A program made the translations under genes and the position numbers. 64,000 bases of DNA from the NCBI GenBank assembly GCA_018655525.1, contig JABIJM010000020.1, positions 14,091 through 78,090 of the forward strand, given 5' to 3'. Shown piece by piece: positions 3,694-57,353 of the stretch. The notes beneath the pieces are model-generated. The model did no database searches, was not told the DNA's origin, and saw only the letters and a list, made by a program, of their open reading frames with translations. Numbering within the stretch: the first letter of the stretch is position 1; each line of letters begins with the position of its first letter. The DNA comes from Candidatus Woesearchaeota archaeon. GTDB taxonomy: Archaea; Nanobdellota; Nanobdellia; Woesearchaeales; GW2011-AR9.

Positions 3694-4377
3694 ATGAAAA
3701 AAATCATTAGTATATTACTCTCATTAGCACTTTCTGGATGTTATCCCGCAGGAATGTATTCATCCCATGAACCTCAAGAATGTAAGAATGTAAAATATGA
3801 AGAAGTCGTTCAAAACGCAAAGCATGCAAATTTTGGTTTGAAGTATCATATTACAACACTTGTTCCAGAAAATAATTTAGAAAAATGTACTTACCGATCT
3901 CCTGTCACAAAAGCAGTTATGATTAAAGATGGACTTGCTCGAAAGATTGAGATGATAGATGTAGGTGCTAAGGTTTCAAATTGGAAAAGGGATCATCATC
4001 CCGCTGGTATAATTTATGATGATGAAATGGCCGCAGATTGTACATATAATCCTCATAGATATCGTGATTGGTTTTGTAAAGGCACCAATGGAAAAAATTA
4101 CACCTTACCAAATAATAACAATAAAGTTACTGAAGGAGAACTAATTACGCTTGCAGTAAAAACAATTGATTGTTTGAAAGGTAAAGGAAGTAATGTAAAG
4201 ATTGATTCAAATGAAGATATAACAAGCTGTATACAAACACCAAAAGGCAAATTACCACGACATAATCCATTAATTCCATCTGATCCTGGATTTCGTAGAG
4301 GACAAGGTCATTTCTATAAAAAGATGGATTATGGATTTTGTTATGATGCTCGTGTTCATTGTCGTTTTTCAAAATAG
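3694..4377 (+). CDS. Putative lipoprotein, Cys-containing, unknown function
   Basis: MKK + hydrophobic stretch + LSGC lipobox. Confidence 0.6.
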   Translation: MKKIISILLSLALSGCYPAGMYSSHEPQECKNVKYEEVVQNAKHANFGLKYHITTLVPENNLEKCTYRSPVTKAVMIKDGLARKIEMIDVGAKVSNWKRDHHPAGIIYDDEMAADCTYNPHRYRDWFCKGTNGKNYTLPNNNNKVTEGELITLAVKTIDCLKGKGSNVKIDSNEDITSCIQTPKGKLPRHNPLIPSDPGFRRGQGHFYKKMDYGFCYDARVHCRFSK

Positions 4378-15207: not shown

Positions 15208-15273
15208 TTTATGTGTTTTTAGTGAAATCTGCTTTTAAGTTTTGTGGAAGTGTAGGAATATATAGCACACCCC

Positions 15274-15303
15274 ACTAGACAAGTACGCATAGAGCTTATA
15301 AAT
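15274..15303 (+). promoter_or_regulatory. Conserved motif plus TATA box upstream of LAGLIDADG gene 1
   Basis: ACTAGACAAGTACGCATAGAGCTTATAAAT; 27/30 identical to 55949-55978 (-). Confidence 0.8.
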
Positions 15304-15323: not shown

Positions 15324-16013
15324 ATGAACCTAGGTAAAATTAATAAAATTCCCTTAAATAATATCACTGCATATTTAGCTGGTGTAATTATTGGAGATGG
15401 AAATGTCTCCAATGCATCAAAATCTAAAAAAGATAAATCAAAAGATTATAGAATTACAATTGAAGTTACTGATCTTAATTTCTTAATCAATGTTGAAAAA
15501 TTAATTAAATCAATTATAAAAACAAAAAGTACAGTAACAAAAAGATCAAAAATTAAAGAAAAAAGGAAACAATTATATTATTTTCAATTTAGAAATAAAA
15601 GTTTTTATTACTTTCTTACAAAAGATTTGGAGATTCCAGCTGGAAAAAAGTCAAATATTGTTTTTGTTCCTAATAAAATATTAAAATCTAATGGATTATA
15701 TCCTTTTTTTCTTGCTGGGGTATTTGATACAGATGGAGGAATTAGAGGAAAGACTCCTGGATTTACTTCAGCAAGTAAAAAATTAATTGATGGATTAAGT
15801 TTTATTCTAAATGAACTTAAAATCACCCATTATTTAGATTCATGGGTTAATAAGAGATATAATCAAAGATATTATGGAATTAAGATATCGGTAAAAGATA
15901 CCGACAAGTTTTTAAATGGGTTACCATCATGTAACAAAGAGAAACTTGACAAAGTTCTTGTCCATGTGGACGTGCCGGAGCGGTCAAACGGGCTGGAAGG
16001 TCTTCCGATATAG
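15324..16013 (+). CDS. Free-standing double-motif LAGLIDADG endonuclease-like protein; 3' end overlaps tRNA-Leu
   Basis: AYLAGVIIGDG and FLAGVFDTDGG; no intein splicing motifs; stop TAG 16011-16013 lies in the tRNA intron. Confidence 0.88.
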   Translation: MNLGKINKIPLNNITAYLAGVIIGDGNVSNASKSKKDKSKDYRITIEVTDLNFLINVEKLIKSIIKTKSTVTKRSKIKEKRKQLYYFQFRNKSFYYFLTKDLEIPAGKKSNIVFVPNKILKSNGLYPFFLAGVFDTDGGIRGKTPGFTSASKKLIDGLSFILNELKITHYLDSWVNKRYNQRYYGIKISVKDTDKFLNGLPSCNKEKLDKVLVHVDVPERSNGLEGLPI

Positions 16014-54051: not shown

Positions 54052-54927
54052 TTACTTTCTCCGTTTTTGCTTTTTAGCTAAATTATCAATATTCTTTAAA
54101 TCTTCAACAATATCAGACGCAATAAACGAATATCCTTTCTTTTTCTTAAGAAGCATATCTCCAACTAAACCATTGAGGTATGCTGCAGCAACTGCACTTT
54201 TGAATAAGTCTTGGGACTTTGCAAGAAATCCTACTGCAAGTCCTGCAAGGACGTCACCTGTCCCTCCTTTCGTCATACCTTGATTACCAGTTCTGTTATA
54301 TGAAATTTTGTTTCGTGAAATAATAATGTCTGTTGGACCTTTTAAAAGGAGAACATTGTTATTTTGAAGAAAGTATCGTAAGTTACCTTGAAGAATTTCT
54401 GCTTTTTCTTTTACATGTGCTTCTCGTAATTTAGGGATTAAGAAATCTTTCCCACTATTTGCAAGCATCATTTCTAATTCTGTTTCATGTGGCGTTATAA
54501 TGGAATTTTGAAAATCTTTGAATCCCATTGATTTCAATGCATCAGCATCAATTACTTTTGGCCATGGACATTTTTTGATGAAGTATTGTGCAAATTTATC
54601 TCCTTTTCTGGTCATACCATTTCCAAGAAGTACTGCATCAAAGTGTTCCACAAGCCGCACCATTTCTTTTGCTTGTTTAACGGTATAAAGATTTCCTTTG
54701 ATTTTCTTTGTGATTAAATCTGGAGCATACCTATTTACGGTCCATGCCACTTTATCTTGTGCTGCAATTGTAACAATGTCACATCCGGATCTTAAAGCTC
54801 CAAGACCTGCTAATGTTAACGCACCTACAAAATCTTCAGAACCGCCAATGATTAATGCTCTTCCATTTTCTCCTTTACGTGAGTTCTTCTTACGGTCCAT
54901 TAATTTTTTAACGTAGTTGAGGTTCAT
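54052..54927 (-). CDS. nnrD: NAD(P)HX dehydratase
   Basis: KGENGRALIIGGS, IDADAL, ITPHETE, LKG, GGTGDVLAG. Confidence 0.92.
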   Translation of the reverse strand: MNLNYVKKLMDRKKNSRKGENGRALIIGGSEDFVGALTLAGLGALRSGCDIVTIAAQDKVAWTVNRYAPDLITKKIKGNLYTVKQAKEMVRLVEHFDAVLLGNGMTRKGDKFAQYFIKKCPWPKVIDADALKSMGFKDFQNSIITPHETELEMMLANSGKDFLIPKLREAHVKEKAEILQGNLRYFLQNNNVLLLKGPTDIIISRNKISYNRTGNQGMTKGGTGDVLAGLAVGFLAKSQDLFKSAVAAAYLNGLVGDMLLKKKKGYSFIASDIVEDLKNIDNLAKKQKRRK

Positions 54928-55086
54928 TTATAAAAGAAAATGTCTATTTTGAGGTTTATATAGTTTTATTGTAATCCTAAAGTAAGAAAAGTGATTTTTG
55001 TATGCGTTTATTTAAATGAAAAAACAAAAAAGGTGTATTTAAGTTTACAAAAATCTTTTAAAGGGATGTTGTTATTAGAGCTTTGT

Positions 55087-55225
55087 GGGCCTGTAGCTCA
55101 GTCTGGTCTAGAGCGCTGATTCCTAAAGGAAGCGTAAGTCTTATATGAATGCTCTTGATTCAGATTACAACATCAAGAGTATCTAAGCCAGCCAGAGGTC
55201 GAGGGTTCAAATCCCGCCAGGCCCA
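55087..55225 (+). tRNA. tRNA-Ile(UAU) with introns at 29/30 (55119-55137) and 37/38 (55146-55189)
   Basis: Spliced: GGGCCTG TA GCTC AGTCTGGTCTA GAGC G CTGGT CT TAT AA GCCAG AGGTC GAGGG TTCAAAT CCCGC CAGGCCC A; BHB helices GCGC/GCGT and CTTA/TAAG. Confidence 0.88.
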
Positions 55226-55928
55226 CTTTTTTTTTGAATTTTTTTTTGTTATTATATCCAATTATCTCAAGCCATTTGGTTACTCGCTTAAATCCGTGAA
55301 TTGATATTGTATGAGAGATGTAAGTTTTACTACTTCGTTTATCATATCTTTTTATATCAAGAAGAATAGAATTTTGAATATTTAACTTTATAAAAAGTTT
55401 TTGAAGATCAATAATTAAATTCTTACTTGAAAAATCTCCTTGTAAACTTGGATAAGGGCCGTTACTTCGTTTACGAATTATTAAGCTAAAATCCGTATCA
55501 ATTAGACCTCTTAGAAAACCAGCGATTATTTCTTTGTTATTTGATACCATAATAATGTTTGGAACACAAATATCTTTCTTTGTACCTATTGGAAGTCCAA
55601 TTACTTTAGTATAAAAATTTGCAAGAGCAAAAGAGTAAATCCTAAGTCTTAATTCGTTACCTTTTTGCCTCAATGTTCCTTTTTGAATATTGTATAATTC
55701 TCTCTTAAGGTTCATGATATGCGTCATATGACTTTTTTCATCAATATGTCCAGAATAGATAAATTCAAAAGTTTTACAACTTCCAGCCAGATAAAGAGAT
55801 CCATCACCTAAATGAATTCCAATATCTTCGGATAACTTAGGTGTTAGAACTTCTGGAATTACAATTCCTTTTTCTATATCTCTTCTACTATAAACTACAT
55901 TTGATAAATTTAATTTTTCCATTTTCAC
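55173..55928 (-). CDS. Free-standing double-motif LAGLIDADG endonuclease-like protein; 3' end antisense to tRNA-Ile
   Basis: EDIGIHLGDG and FLRGLIDTDF; tail VGLAGFEPSTSG is the tRNA antisense; stop lies in the 37/38 intron. Confidence 0.88.
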   Translation of the reverse strand: MKMEKLNLSNVVYSRRDIEKGIVIPEVLTPKLSEDIGIHLGDGSLYLAGSCKTFEFIYSGHIDEKSHMTHIMNLKRELYNIQKGTLRQKGNELRLRIYSFALANFYTKVIGLPIGTKKDICVPNIIMVSNNKEIIAGFLRGLIDTDFSLIIRKRSNGPYPSLQGDFSSKNLIIDLQKLFIKLNIQNSILLDIKRYDKRSSKTYISHTISIHGFKRVTKWLEIIGYNNKKKFKKKVGLAGFEPSTSGWLRYS

Positions 55929-55948
55929 TAAACTAAATGGAAAAATTG

Positions 55949-55978
55949 ATTTATAAATTCTATCCGTACTTGTCTAGT
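55949..55978 (-). promoter_or_regulatory. Conserved motif plus TATA box upstream of LAGLIDADG gene 2
   Basis: ACTAGACAAGTACGGATAGAATTTATAAAT on - strand; extra CACTAGACAA copies nearby. Confidence 0.8.
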
Positions 55979-56096
55979 TGTCTAGTGGTTTATAAAAAAA
56001 CCTATGAGAGTTAAAAATTCTTTAGAATTAGGTCCTATAGCACTAGACAATTATTTCAGAATTCCATAACCACATTTGAAAACGAGGATTTGGAAT

Positions 56097-57353
56097 TCAC
56101 TTCAAAATTCCATAACCGATTAATCTAAACCGATCTCCGACTCTTCTGGAAATTGTAATCCTATCTCCAGGATTTGCGCAGATTGGTTTTTTAAGAATAC
56201 AAGTTGTGTTTTTCTTAGAAGGATCTAATACTACACCAACAGTTGCTGCAGAGTTTACATTCAACATAAGAACTTCTTTCTTCGCAAGTGGTTTTACTTC
56301 ATCTTCTTCTTTGGTTCCTACAACGCGTTCAAGAAGATGGGTGTCTAAAGAAATTTGATAATGAACGGGTGGTAATTCCCCAGGTTTTCCAACTAAACTT
56401 CCTGTTAAAGCATCTGATTTTACAATCATTGGATCTAAAGTTGTTCCTAAGGCCATACTTCCACCTGGAAATATTTCATCTACTGGAACTCCGCCTGAAA
56501 AAATCTTTGTAACTTTTGTTTTTACTGGTTTCCAAACCTTTTTGTTTTTTTCTTCAGTCATAAAACCAGGACAGATTTCAATGTCATCACCAACTTTGAA
56601 TGTTCCTTGTTTCACAGTACCACCAAGAACTCCTCCAATAAGATCTTTTGGTTTCATTCCAGGTTTGTTGATGTCAAATGATCGTGCAACAAGCATTAAT
56701 GGTTTTGCTTTCAAATCTTGTTTTATAACTGGCATCTTTTCTTGAATGGTTTTTACTAAAACATCAACATTAACATTTGCTCTTGCTGAAATTGGAATGA
56801 TTGCTGCATTTTTGTAATCGGTATTTGCAAGAAAATCTTTAATTTGTTTATGATTTTTAATTGCTTCTTCTGTTGTTACAAGATCTATTTTATTTTGAAC
56901 AACAATAATATTTTTCATACCGGAAATTTGAAGTGCCATTAAATGTTCTTTTGTTTGTGGTTGAGGGCATTTTTCATTTGCTGCGATCATCAATAATGCA
57001 CCGTCAACAATTGCTGCTCCTGAAAGCATGGTTGCCATTAGAGACTCGTGACCAGGTGCGTCTACTAAGGACATTTTTCTTAGTAATGTTGTTTCAGAAT
57101 TACATTTAATACATTTATTTTTTGTTGTGTAATAATCACATTTGTCACATTTGTAAATTGAAATATCAGCATATCCTAATCTGATGGTAATTCCACGTTT
57201 AAGTTCTTCAGAATGCGTATCTGTCCATTTTCCTGAAAGACGTTCGGTTAAGGTTGTTTTACCATGATCTACATGACCAACTAACGCTAGATTAAATTCT
57301 GGTTGAACATGTTTATCTTTAGATTTTGTTGGTTTTGCTGCTTTTTTAGCCAT
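56097..57353 (-). CDS. eif2g: Translation initiation factor aIF2 gamma subunit
   Basis: QPEFN, GHVDHGKTT, EELKRGITIRLGY, DAPGHE, NKID, RLIGYG. Confidence 0.97.
   Translation of the reverse strand: MAKKAAKPTKSKDKHVQPEFNLALVGHVDHGKTTLTERLSGKWTDTHSEELKRGITIRLGYADISIYKCDKCDYYTTKNKCIKCNSETTLLRKMSLVDAPGHESLMATMLSGAAIVDGALLMIAANEKCPQPQTKEHLMALQISGMKNIIVVQNKIDLVTTEEAIKNHKQIKDFLANTDYKNAAIIPISARANVNVDVLVKTIQEKMPVIKQDLKAKPLMLVARSFDINKPGMKPKDLIGGVLGGTVKQGTFKVGDDIEICPGFMTEEKNKKVWKPVKTKVTKIFSGGVPVDEIFPGGSMALGTTLDPMIVKSDALTGSLVGKPGELPPVHYQISLDTHLLERVVGTKEEDEVKPLAKKEVLMLNVNSAATVGVVLDPSKKNTTCILKKPICANPGDRITISRRVGDRFRLIGYGILK

Follow-up and report, generated by a model that had tools for sequence, protein, structure and literature searches.

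A predicted free-standing LAGLIDADG endonuclease cassette beside a tRNA-Ile gene of a Woesearchaeota archaeon

Structure of the tRNA-Ile locus

We analysed 64,000 nucleotides (nt) of DNA from Candidatus Woesearchaeota archaeon (order Woesearchaeales; GenBank assembly GCA_018655525.1, contig JABIJM010000020.1, positions 14,091 to 78,090 of the forward strand), and refer to this whole stretch as the window. Within it, a gene for a LAGLIDADG protein runs from the opposite strand into the 3′ half of a tRNA-Ile(UAU) gene. The explanation that we consider probable is that this gene is part of a tRNA-tied, free-standing LAGLIDADG cassette that lies exactly between the 3′ end of the tRNA-Ile gene and the end of the eIF2-gamma gene, and that the repeats around it are partly boxes of a putative regulon and partly an older duplication. 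The source genome has 0.96 Mb in 30 contigs, with 33% G+C and 93.6% completeness, and the host organism was detected in seawater metagenomes. The features of the locus are as follows (ORF, open reading frame; aa, amino acids).

54052..54927, minus strand: nnrD, encoding NAD(P)H-hydrate dehydratase (Pfam Carb_kinase, E 7e-43); divergent from the tRNA gene and used as synteny anchor
55087..55225, plus strand: tRNA-Ile(UAU) gene with exons 55087-55118, 55138-55145 and 55190-55225, from Rfam, ARAGORN and the orthologue upstream of relatives' nnrD
55119..55137, plus strand: predicted intron 1, 19 nt, at the non-canonical position 29/30, bulge-helix-bulge
55146..55189, plus strand: predicted intron 2, 44 nt, at the canonical position 37/38, bulge-helix-bulge; contains the endonuclease stop codon (55173-55175)
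55173..55922, minus strand: predicted LAGLIDADG homing-endonuclease ORF, 249 aa from the ATG
55173..55225, both strands: 53 nt in which the ORF tail overlaps tRNA exon 3 and intron 2 in antisense
55227..55247: T9-GAA-T9 stretch directly 3′ of the tRNA, read from the sequence
55228..56050, minus strand: putative inserted cassette (inverted box, promoter block and ORF), about 823 nt, missing at the empty site of genome G004
55949..55987, minus strand: putative promoter block, a doubled box (CACTAGACAA and CTAGACAAGTACG) and then a TATA box; the ATG lies 26 nt past the TATA box
56041..56050, plus strand: auxiliary box CACTAGACAA in inverted orientation, 70 nt upstream of the main box
56051..56071, minus strand: copy B of the eIF2-gamma end, 21 nt, which would again encode GYGILK-stop
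56072..56096, minus strand: spacer between the gene-end copies, 25 nt, of which the first 14 nt are conserved in relatives
56097..57353, minus strand: eIF2-gamma gene (Pfam GTP_EFTU and eIF2_C), whose real end is copy A, 56097-56117

In four runs, each from a different study, contig pieces span the nnrD–tRNA, tRNA–ORF and ORF–box–eIF2-gamma joints with no differences. Because they cross every junction unchanged, the filled arrangement is not an assembly artefact.

The Rfam tRNA model matches positions 55087-55225 on the plus strand with 43.5 bits and a 74-nt gap within the anticodon arm. An intron-blind tRNA scan returned no genes, and ARAGORN with introns allowed mis-typed the tRNA-Ile as Cys, as it also mis-typed the tRNA beside a second LAGLIDADG gene of the window (gene 1). 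After deletion of both introns, ARAGORN gave a cloverleaf of 77 nt called tRNA-Ile(tat). We placed the intron borders by enumerating all canonical anticodon-arm solutions and by comparison with the uninterrupted genes of relatives. In each intron, a 4-base-pair (bp) helix then separates two bulges of 3 nt, one on either strand, and the splice site follows the second base of the bulge; this pairing was proposed by hand and checked base by base, and an unconstrained computed fold does not show it. Both inserts are predicted to be archaeal bulge-helix-bulge tRNA introns. Standard tools miss or mis-type several other tRNAs of the source genome, and Rfam at a loose threshold missed multi-intron tRNAs beside four endonuclease genes.

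A two-motif endonuclease that overlaps the tRNA

The frame is open at 55173..55928 on the minus strand, and its first ATG (55920-55922) gives a protein of 249 aa. A profile built from 28 homologues matches solved LAGLIDADG enzymes (E 3.4e-15). The protein carries two LAGLIDADG motifs, and residues G35, G39, D40, G41, G139 and D144 are invariant across 28 sequences, with D40 in a GDG and D144 in a DTD triplet. The codons of both catalytic aspartates, at 55803-55805 (D40) and 55491-55493 (D144), are intact. An AlphaFold model (pLDDT 91.7, pTM 0.89) has the pseudo-symmetric two-domain alpha/beta fold of such enzymes, and its best Foldseek matches are the TliVMA intein endonuclease domain, I-Tsp061I and I-DmoI, each with probability 1.00. 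The ORF product is predicted to be a monomeric, two-motif LAGLIDADG homing endonuclease that cleaves DNA. The gene also shows the presence/absence polymorphism at one site and the sporadic distribution that mark homing-endonuclease genes.

The original prediction, which was made from the window's letters, had the ORF entering the 3′ half of the tRNA-Ile gene in antisense, with its TGA inside an intron; the coordinates given by the ORF, Rfam and ARAGORN confirm this arrangement. On the minus strand, the T9-GAA-T9 stretch supplies the codons K-K-K-F-K-K-K, which align with the Lys-rich C-terminal stretch of the family, whereas on the plus strand the same bases probably act as the oligo-T terminator of the tRNA. 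Past the Lys codons, the frame continues through the antisense acceptor and T arms to the first stop. Residues 237-249, the tail that is antisense to the tRNA, have pLDDT values below 50 and are predicted to be disordered. Among the paralogues of the source genome (G000), three (G000:C21:25444, C17:31198 and C11:85852) end where their frame meets the TGA in the antisense T-loop of the adjoining tRNA, and a fourth (C8:49946) stops within a T-loop intron, in a tRNA that escaped every tool. The overlap and the stop within the intron look like incidental by-products, because the overlapping tail is modelled as disordered and because the paralogues end at the T-loop TGA or in a T-loop intron instead.

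An 18-nt inverted repeat (89% complementary) at 55907-55952 straddles the start codon of the endonuclease gene. We considered a 5′-leader hairpin over the start codon and set it aside: the 26 nt between the TATA box and the ATG imply an almost leaderless transcript, with the upstream arm of the repeat outside it.

An insertion at the tRNA–eIF2-gamma junction

The nnrD and tRNA-Ile(UAU) genes are divergent neighbours across the taxonomic family. We compared 30 nnrD loci, those of 29 relatives and the source genome, with 40 endonuclease protein queries (E<1e-4), taking up to 1500 nt upstream of each nnrD (in four cases only 691-1160 nt). A LAGLIDADG gene is present in 1 of the 30, that of the source genome. 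In G004, a genome of another genus whose eIF2-gamma is 81% identical, the duplicated eIF2-gamma end is followed by 2 nt and then by the 3′ end of the tRNA, which makes this an empty site. By this yardstick the insert covers 55228-56050, about 823 nt. The congener G002 has the same gap filled by two unrelated genes, and G001 has other genes after the duplicated eIF2-gamma end. Comparison of these sequences indicates that about 0.82 kb carrying the endonuclease gene was inserted at tRNA-Ile, and that the junction is an insertion hot spot, because it is empty in G004 and occupied by other genes in G002 and G001.

A 33-nt direct repeat (88%) of the tRNA-Ile 3′ end occurs in G002 (L021:3388-3420 and 4207-4239), its copies lying 819 nt apart on either side of one of the two genes in the gap, a cargo gene. 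The gene that the repeat flanks encodes a lipoprotein-like protein of 244 aa, which gives the impression of a cassette that entered at the end of the tRNA. In the source genome, no repeat of the tRNA end that flanks the cassette was found in 55000-56200. The endonuclease gene is the only ORF within the cassette, and an integrase gene is absent. An integrative element of the integrase type was considered and rejected, as the cassette has neither an integrase nor direct repeats of the tRNA end in that interval. No joint that skips the cassette is listed in the contigs of four seawater runs, which drop rare variants, so that this result has no bearing on empty alleles.

The tRNA itself also seems out of place. 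Between nnrD and the tRNA, the spacer is identical to that of the congener G002 at 132 of 161 positions, and the similarity breaks at the 5′ edge of the tRNA. The tRNA exons match those of G002 at 61 of 76 positions; intron 1 is absent in G002, and intron 2 matches at 25 of 45. The corresponding values for G259, from another genus, are 72 of 76 for the exons, 17 of 19 for intron 1 and 35 of 47 for intron 2. G004 and G259, which belong to the same genus as each other, share 60 of 76 exon positions. Because the tRNA allele is closer to that of G259 than to that of the congener, the block of tRNA allele and cassette looks foreign to its surroundings, as expected from homing with co-conversion. 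Neither an endonuclease relic nor a box was found in the flank of the G259 tRNA.

The original prediction had proposed repeated insertion or replacement at this tRNA and had named, as the result that would count against it, an interval identical in all relatives with no empty allele. The comparison instead gave an insertion in 1 of 30 loci, an empty allele in G004, other genes in G002 and a tRNA allele that looks replaced.

Endonuclease lineages follow tRNA identity

Homologues of the endonuclease occur in 68 of the 201 genomes sampled from the order. The best non-self match (51% identical) is in G208, a genome of another taxonomic family, and it also adjoins tRNA-Ile(UAU), in antisense, with the same frame between ORF and tRNA and the same Lys-rich junction. 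Its neighbouring genes are wholly different, and its tRNA lacks the 29/30 intron. We fetched 29 non-self loci, of which 28 could be assessed, and all 28 adjoin a tRNA gene, 25 convergently and 3 co-directionally (26 of 26 without L071 and L078, which come from unpublished genomes). These docking counts were read by eye, as the automatic tRNA delimiter is unreliable for the relatives; anticodons were assigned automatically for 14 loci.

Convergent docking is the commoner arrangement, which puts the contrast with gene 1 in another light. The original prediction had described the geometry at tRNA-Ile as the opposite of that of gene 1. Gene 1 (ORF 15324-16013) does enter a co-directional tRNA and has its TAG in an intron of about 30 nt, and Leu(tag) is called once that intron is removed; it is gene 1, however, that has the rarer orientation.

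In a maximum-likelihood tree of 28 proteins, clades match the identity of the adjoining tRNA: Ile-UAU (2 rows, support 100/99), Lys-CUU (5 rows, 100/98), Thr-UGU (5 rows, 98/97) and Asn-GUU (3 rows, 100/99). The tRNA labels require 9 changes on the tree, the minimum possible, compared with an average of 18.2 for shuffled labels, and none of 200 shuffles was as low. The members of a single clade are drawn from different taxonomic families.

The same association recurs within the source genome, where 9 of 14 free-standing LAGLIDADG ORFs touch a tRNA by their 3′ end (6 convergent and 3 co-directional), one of the nine tRNAs being recognized only by eye. A tenth ORF begins 20 nt past a tRNA-Met. 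By arithmetic, positions no more than 50 nt from a called tRNA make up about 0.7% of the source genome, and docking by 9 of 14 ORFs is therefore far beyond chance. Two further loci (G000:C8:68426-71119, 897 aa, and C23:189988-194262, 1424 aa) have LAGLIDADG domains inside other proteins and are probably inteins.

These comparisons argue that the family comprises lineages that each keep to a single tRNA species, against which the 3′ end of the ORF is docked, and this we hold as part of the explanation that we consider probable.

Proposed mechanism and its weak points

We propose that the endonuclease would cut cassette-less tRNA-Ile loci at or near the 3′ boundary of the tRNA, and that recombinational repair would then copy in the cassette together with the neighbouring tRNA allele. 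Insertion of the cassette would split the target and could thereby make the carrier immune. The reading frame would stay open across the tRNA terminator, where oligo-T doubles as Lys codons, and on into the tRNA until the first stop.

Several points weigh against this proposal. The match of the protein to Pfam LAGLIDADG_3 (E 2.2e-4, 21.9 bits) falls just below the curated cut-off of 22.5 bits, and the tRNA identities behind several labels of the tree were read by eye. G259 carries the same type of tRNA allele without an endonuclease relic, and the discordance of the alleles could stem from old polymorphism or from an exchange of tRNA alleles that is unrelated to the endonuclease. A half-site in the non-conserved DNA of the flank would be unusual for a homing target. 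Finally, old vertical inheritance with many losses could partly account for the deep association with tRNAs.

In its full form, this last idea makes the endonuclease–tRNA pair an old resident that was inherited vertically from the ancestor of the order and lost from most lineages, with a gene that may now be decaying or idle. A junction and frame shared with an orthologue of 51% identity in another family fit such a history, and the fidelity of clades to tRNAs would also be expected from long co-inheritance. Many independent losses would be needed, however, as none of the 29 other loci of the family is filled; the ORF is intact and has kept both catalytic residues, the tRNA allele does not follow genus membership, and the genes around the G208 orthologue are completely different. 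We regard this history as unlikely.

Promoter boxes and an older duplication

The original prediction listed a tandem duplication, an inverted copy and a direct repeat between the ORF and the eIF2-gamma gene, and all of them were found at the positions that it gave. The tandem consists of two copies of TTGTCTAG at 55970-55985, which read CTAGACAA on the minus strand; the inverted CACTAGACAA lies at 56041-56050, and TATAGCAC occurs at 56036 and again at 15261. A 15-mer form of the box has five matches in the window, compared with 0.69 expected, and none of 100 shuffles reached five. The motif is laid out as a CACT-N-GACAAGT core, about ten further bases and a TATA box, with the ATG about 51-65 nt past the core. 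The core pattern has 25 matches genome-wide, at 22 distinct sites, compared with a mean of 3.3 and a maximum of 7 in 30 shuffles; among the sites are 15273-15302 and 55949-55987 in the window and G000:C8:91592, C8:5988 and C23:152686.

The motif lies upstream of 13 of the 14 free-standing LAGLIDADG ORFs. It also precedes genes for Hef (with DEAD, ERCC4 and HhH domains), RadC and Nre, as well as those for one Bro-N and two ORF6N proteins. The remaining sites comprise a 94-aa protein without a Pfam match, one site without a clear gene and one that is probably spurious. The doubled box of 55970-55985 is a recurrent variant that is found at three endonuclease promoters. An inverted box stands at −69 to −71 from the main box at 5 of the 22 sites (56041-56050 in the window, G000:C23:~137945, C8:~80907, C30 and C18), two of which do not belong to endonuclease genes, and this fixed spacing of 69-71 nt suggests a two-site operator. 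Related boxes precede many homologues elsewhere in the order; in relatives, 6 of 10 RadC loci and 3 of 25 Nre loci have a box upstream of the gene. In one relative (L119, in G002), Nre is preceded by an apparent 3′ part of a tRNA with a T-loop insert and not by a box promoter.

The 12-bp repeat AATTCCATAACC (56060-56071 and 56106-56117) forms the core of a duplicated eIF2-gamma end of 21 nt. Copies A and B are identical at 18 of 21 nt and both read GYGILK-stop, and the copy lies about 46 nt downstream of the real end. The arrangement of copy, spacer of about 25 nt with a conserved 14-mer, and copy is present in 5 of 29 readable loci, namely in the source genome and in G001, G002, G004 and G013 (loci L021, which is that of G002, L024, L026 and L044), all four of which lack an endonuclease there. 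The 14-nt spacer element has no second copy in the source genome. A hairpin encloses the stop codon, and in the five sequences, read by eye, both of its sides change and the pairing is kept. Because four relatives without an endonuclease at the site have kept the duplication, we judge from this comparison that it is older than the cassette. It may belong to a two-way terminator or be what a much earlier event left behind. The inverted box directly abuts the duplicated eIF2-gamma end and marks the edge of the cassette.

These results bear on what the original prediction made of the repeats, namely that the tandem, inverted and direct copies are scars of repeated insertions or replacements of endonuclease genes at the tRNA. 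Some of the data are in line with that idea. The junction is variable among G004, G002 and G001; G002 holds its repeat of the tRNA end with 819 nt between the copies; the inverted box lies against the duplicated gene end; and the 21-nt duplication could go back to an older element that brought in a replacement for the gene end. The tandem and inverted boxes, however, recur as a promoter motif at 22 sites of the genome, with the inverted box at its characteristic distance in five of them and the doubled box at three loci, and some of these promoters serve genes other than endonucleases. The 12-bp repeat belongs to a duplication that relatives keep without an endonuclease and in which the hairpin pairing at the stop codon is preserved, and no repeat of the tRNA end flanks the cassette in the window. 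Because the same spacing is found at promoters elsewhere, including those of non-endonuclease genes, the CTAGACAA boxes are mostly better described as putative promoter or operator sites than as insertion scars, and the origin of the repeats as scars is quite improbable.

tRNA introns as a possible counterpart

Introns are unusually prominent among these tRNAs. In the source genome, 22 of 27 ARAGORN tRNA calls bear introns, many at non-canonical positions. Among the tRNA-Ile(UAU) alleles of relatives (L081-L109), all 23 that could be parsed carry an intron at position 37/38. Intron 1, at 29/30, has no counterpart in 22 of the 23; the exception is G259, in which 17 of 19 nt are identical. T-loop introns of about 18 to more than 100 nt occur in 20 of the 23. 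Some relatives additionally have D-loop introns in tRNA-Ile(UAU), and intron content varies between close genera.

One could suppose a collaborative homing in which the endonuclease cuts intron-less tRNA-Ile genes and the 29/30 intron both protects the carrier and travels with the gene. The presence in the carrier of an intron that is otherwise found in 1 of 23 relatives' alleles agrees with this, as do the many introns in tRNAs of the source genome and the distribution of T-loop introns, which are in 20 of 23 tRNA-Ile alleles without an endonuclease and in neither of the two that bear one. A published hypothesis, in a passage of PMC4090602 that cites Randau and Soll 2008, holds that introns protect tRNA genes against mobile elements. 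A carrier does not always bear an intron, however: the docked tRNAs of L053 (74 nt) and L054 (73 nt) have none, and the tRNA of the G208 orthologue is without the 29/30 intron. Conversely, G259 has that intron and no endonuclease, and several docked tRNAs of relatives do have T-loop introns. The counts are also small and come from related genomes. Collaborative homing in this strict form seems rather improbable to us. A looser version, an arms race between tRNA introns and endonucleases, may hold, because T-loop introns are found in 20 of 23 endonuclease-less alleles and in neither carrier allele.

A possible link to DNA repair

The set of genes behind the motif looks like a regulon of DNA-repair and mobile genes. 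The ORF6N and Bro-N proteins, whose genes have the box themselves, are candidates for the factor that would bind it. Among the literature matches listed, we found nothing pertinent to a known Hef/Nre regulon. It is very unlikely that the LAGLIDADG proteins are domesticated host tools of a repair and recombination regulon: the promoter motif shared with Hef, RadC and Nre, its presence upstream of RadC in 6 of 10 relatives' loci and the 14 intact free-standing copies in a 0.96-Mb genome would suit such a role, but the proteins are patchily distributed (68 of 201 genomes), occupy different tRNAs from one genome to another and have no orthologue at this site in 29 family members, and an end-on position against tRNAs is not expected of host repair genes.

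We return to the tRNA-tied cassette, for which a wider version can be formulated. The cassettes may be wired into a conserved repair regulon of these ultra-small archaea through a two-box operator shared with Hef, RadC and Nre, such that the nucleases would fire together with the copying machinery, and the tRNA-specific endonuclease lineages may at the same time select for odd tRNA introns. We put this combination forward tentatively, as a possibility that we would not expect to hold in full.

Comparison with known systems

Homing endonucleases with free-standing genes are familiar from phages and organelles, and archaea are known to encode LAGLIDADG enzymes in rRNA introns and inteins. Like I-DmoI, I-Tsp061I, the Tli VMA intein and PI-PfuI, the predicted enzyme carries both motifs in a single chain, each with a conserved acidic residue, and shares their fold. 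The coding sequences of those enzymes lie within rRNA introns or inteins, whereas the docked gene is free-standing, has its own putative promoter and lies outside the tRNA, end-on. The tRNA-Ile introns, at 19 and 44 nt, are far too short to encode an endonuclease.

Phage T4 SegB is reportedly a free-standing GIY-YIG homing endonuclease encoded in the tRNA cluster of T4 and is thought to cause the adjoining tRNA region to be inherited preferentially. The two systems have in common a free-standing endonuclease gene among tRNA genes; here, however, the protein belongs to the LAGLIDADG family, the setting is a cellular archaeal chromosome, the gene docks exactly on the tRNA end and its lineages are specific for tRNAs. 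F-CphI and the intron of cyanophage psbA are said to show collaborative homing of a free-standing endonuclease and an intron. That pair is similar in placing an endonuclease gene beside an intron-bearing target gene, but the tRNA-docked family also adjoins intron-less tRNAs, and an intron is thus not a required partner.

The tRNA attachment sites of integrase elements likewise use the 3′ end of a tRNA as a landing place, as the 33-nt repeat of G002 illustrates, whereas the cassette has no integrase and no flanking repeat of the tRNA end in the window. In fungal mitochondria, endonuclease ORFs known as mORFs replace the end of a host gene. The likeness here is a duplicated gene end (GYGILK-stop occurs twice) beside an endonuclease gene; in contrast to the mORFs, the endonuclease gene is not between the two copies, and the duplication is kept in relatives that have no endonuclease. 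In the literature searched, we came across no account of LAGLIDADG genes that dock on tRNA genes of archaea. A family of chromosomal cassettes that are docked end-on, with one lineage per tRNA, appears to be undescribed.

Implications

If the proposal is correct, archaeal tRNA genes would be the target of a concrete mobile agent, and the proposition that introns protect tRNA genes would become testable. The lateral replacement of tRNA alleles would be explained, and natural enzymes with presumably distinct, long DNA targets would be at hand. The boxes would define a regulon in which selfish nucleases are tied to DNA repair, in organisms for which no genetic system exists. Were the tentative reading that joins the repair regulon with selection for introns to hold as well, it would give direct support to the view that introns shield tRNA genes from mobile DNA.

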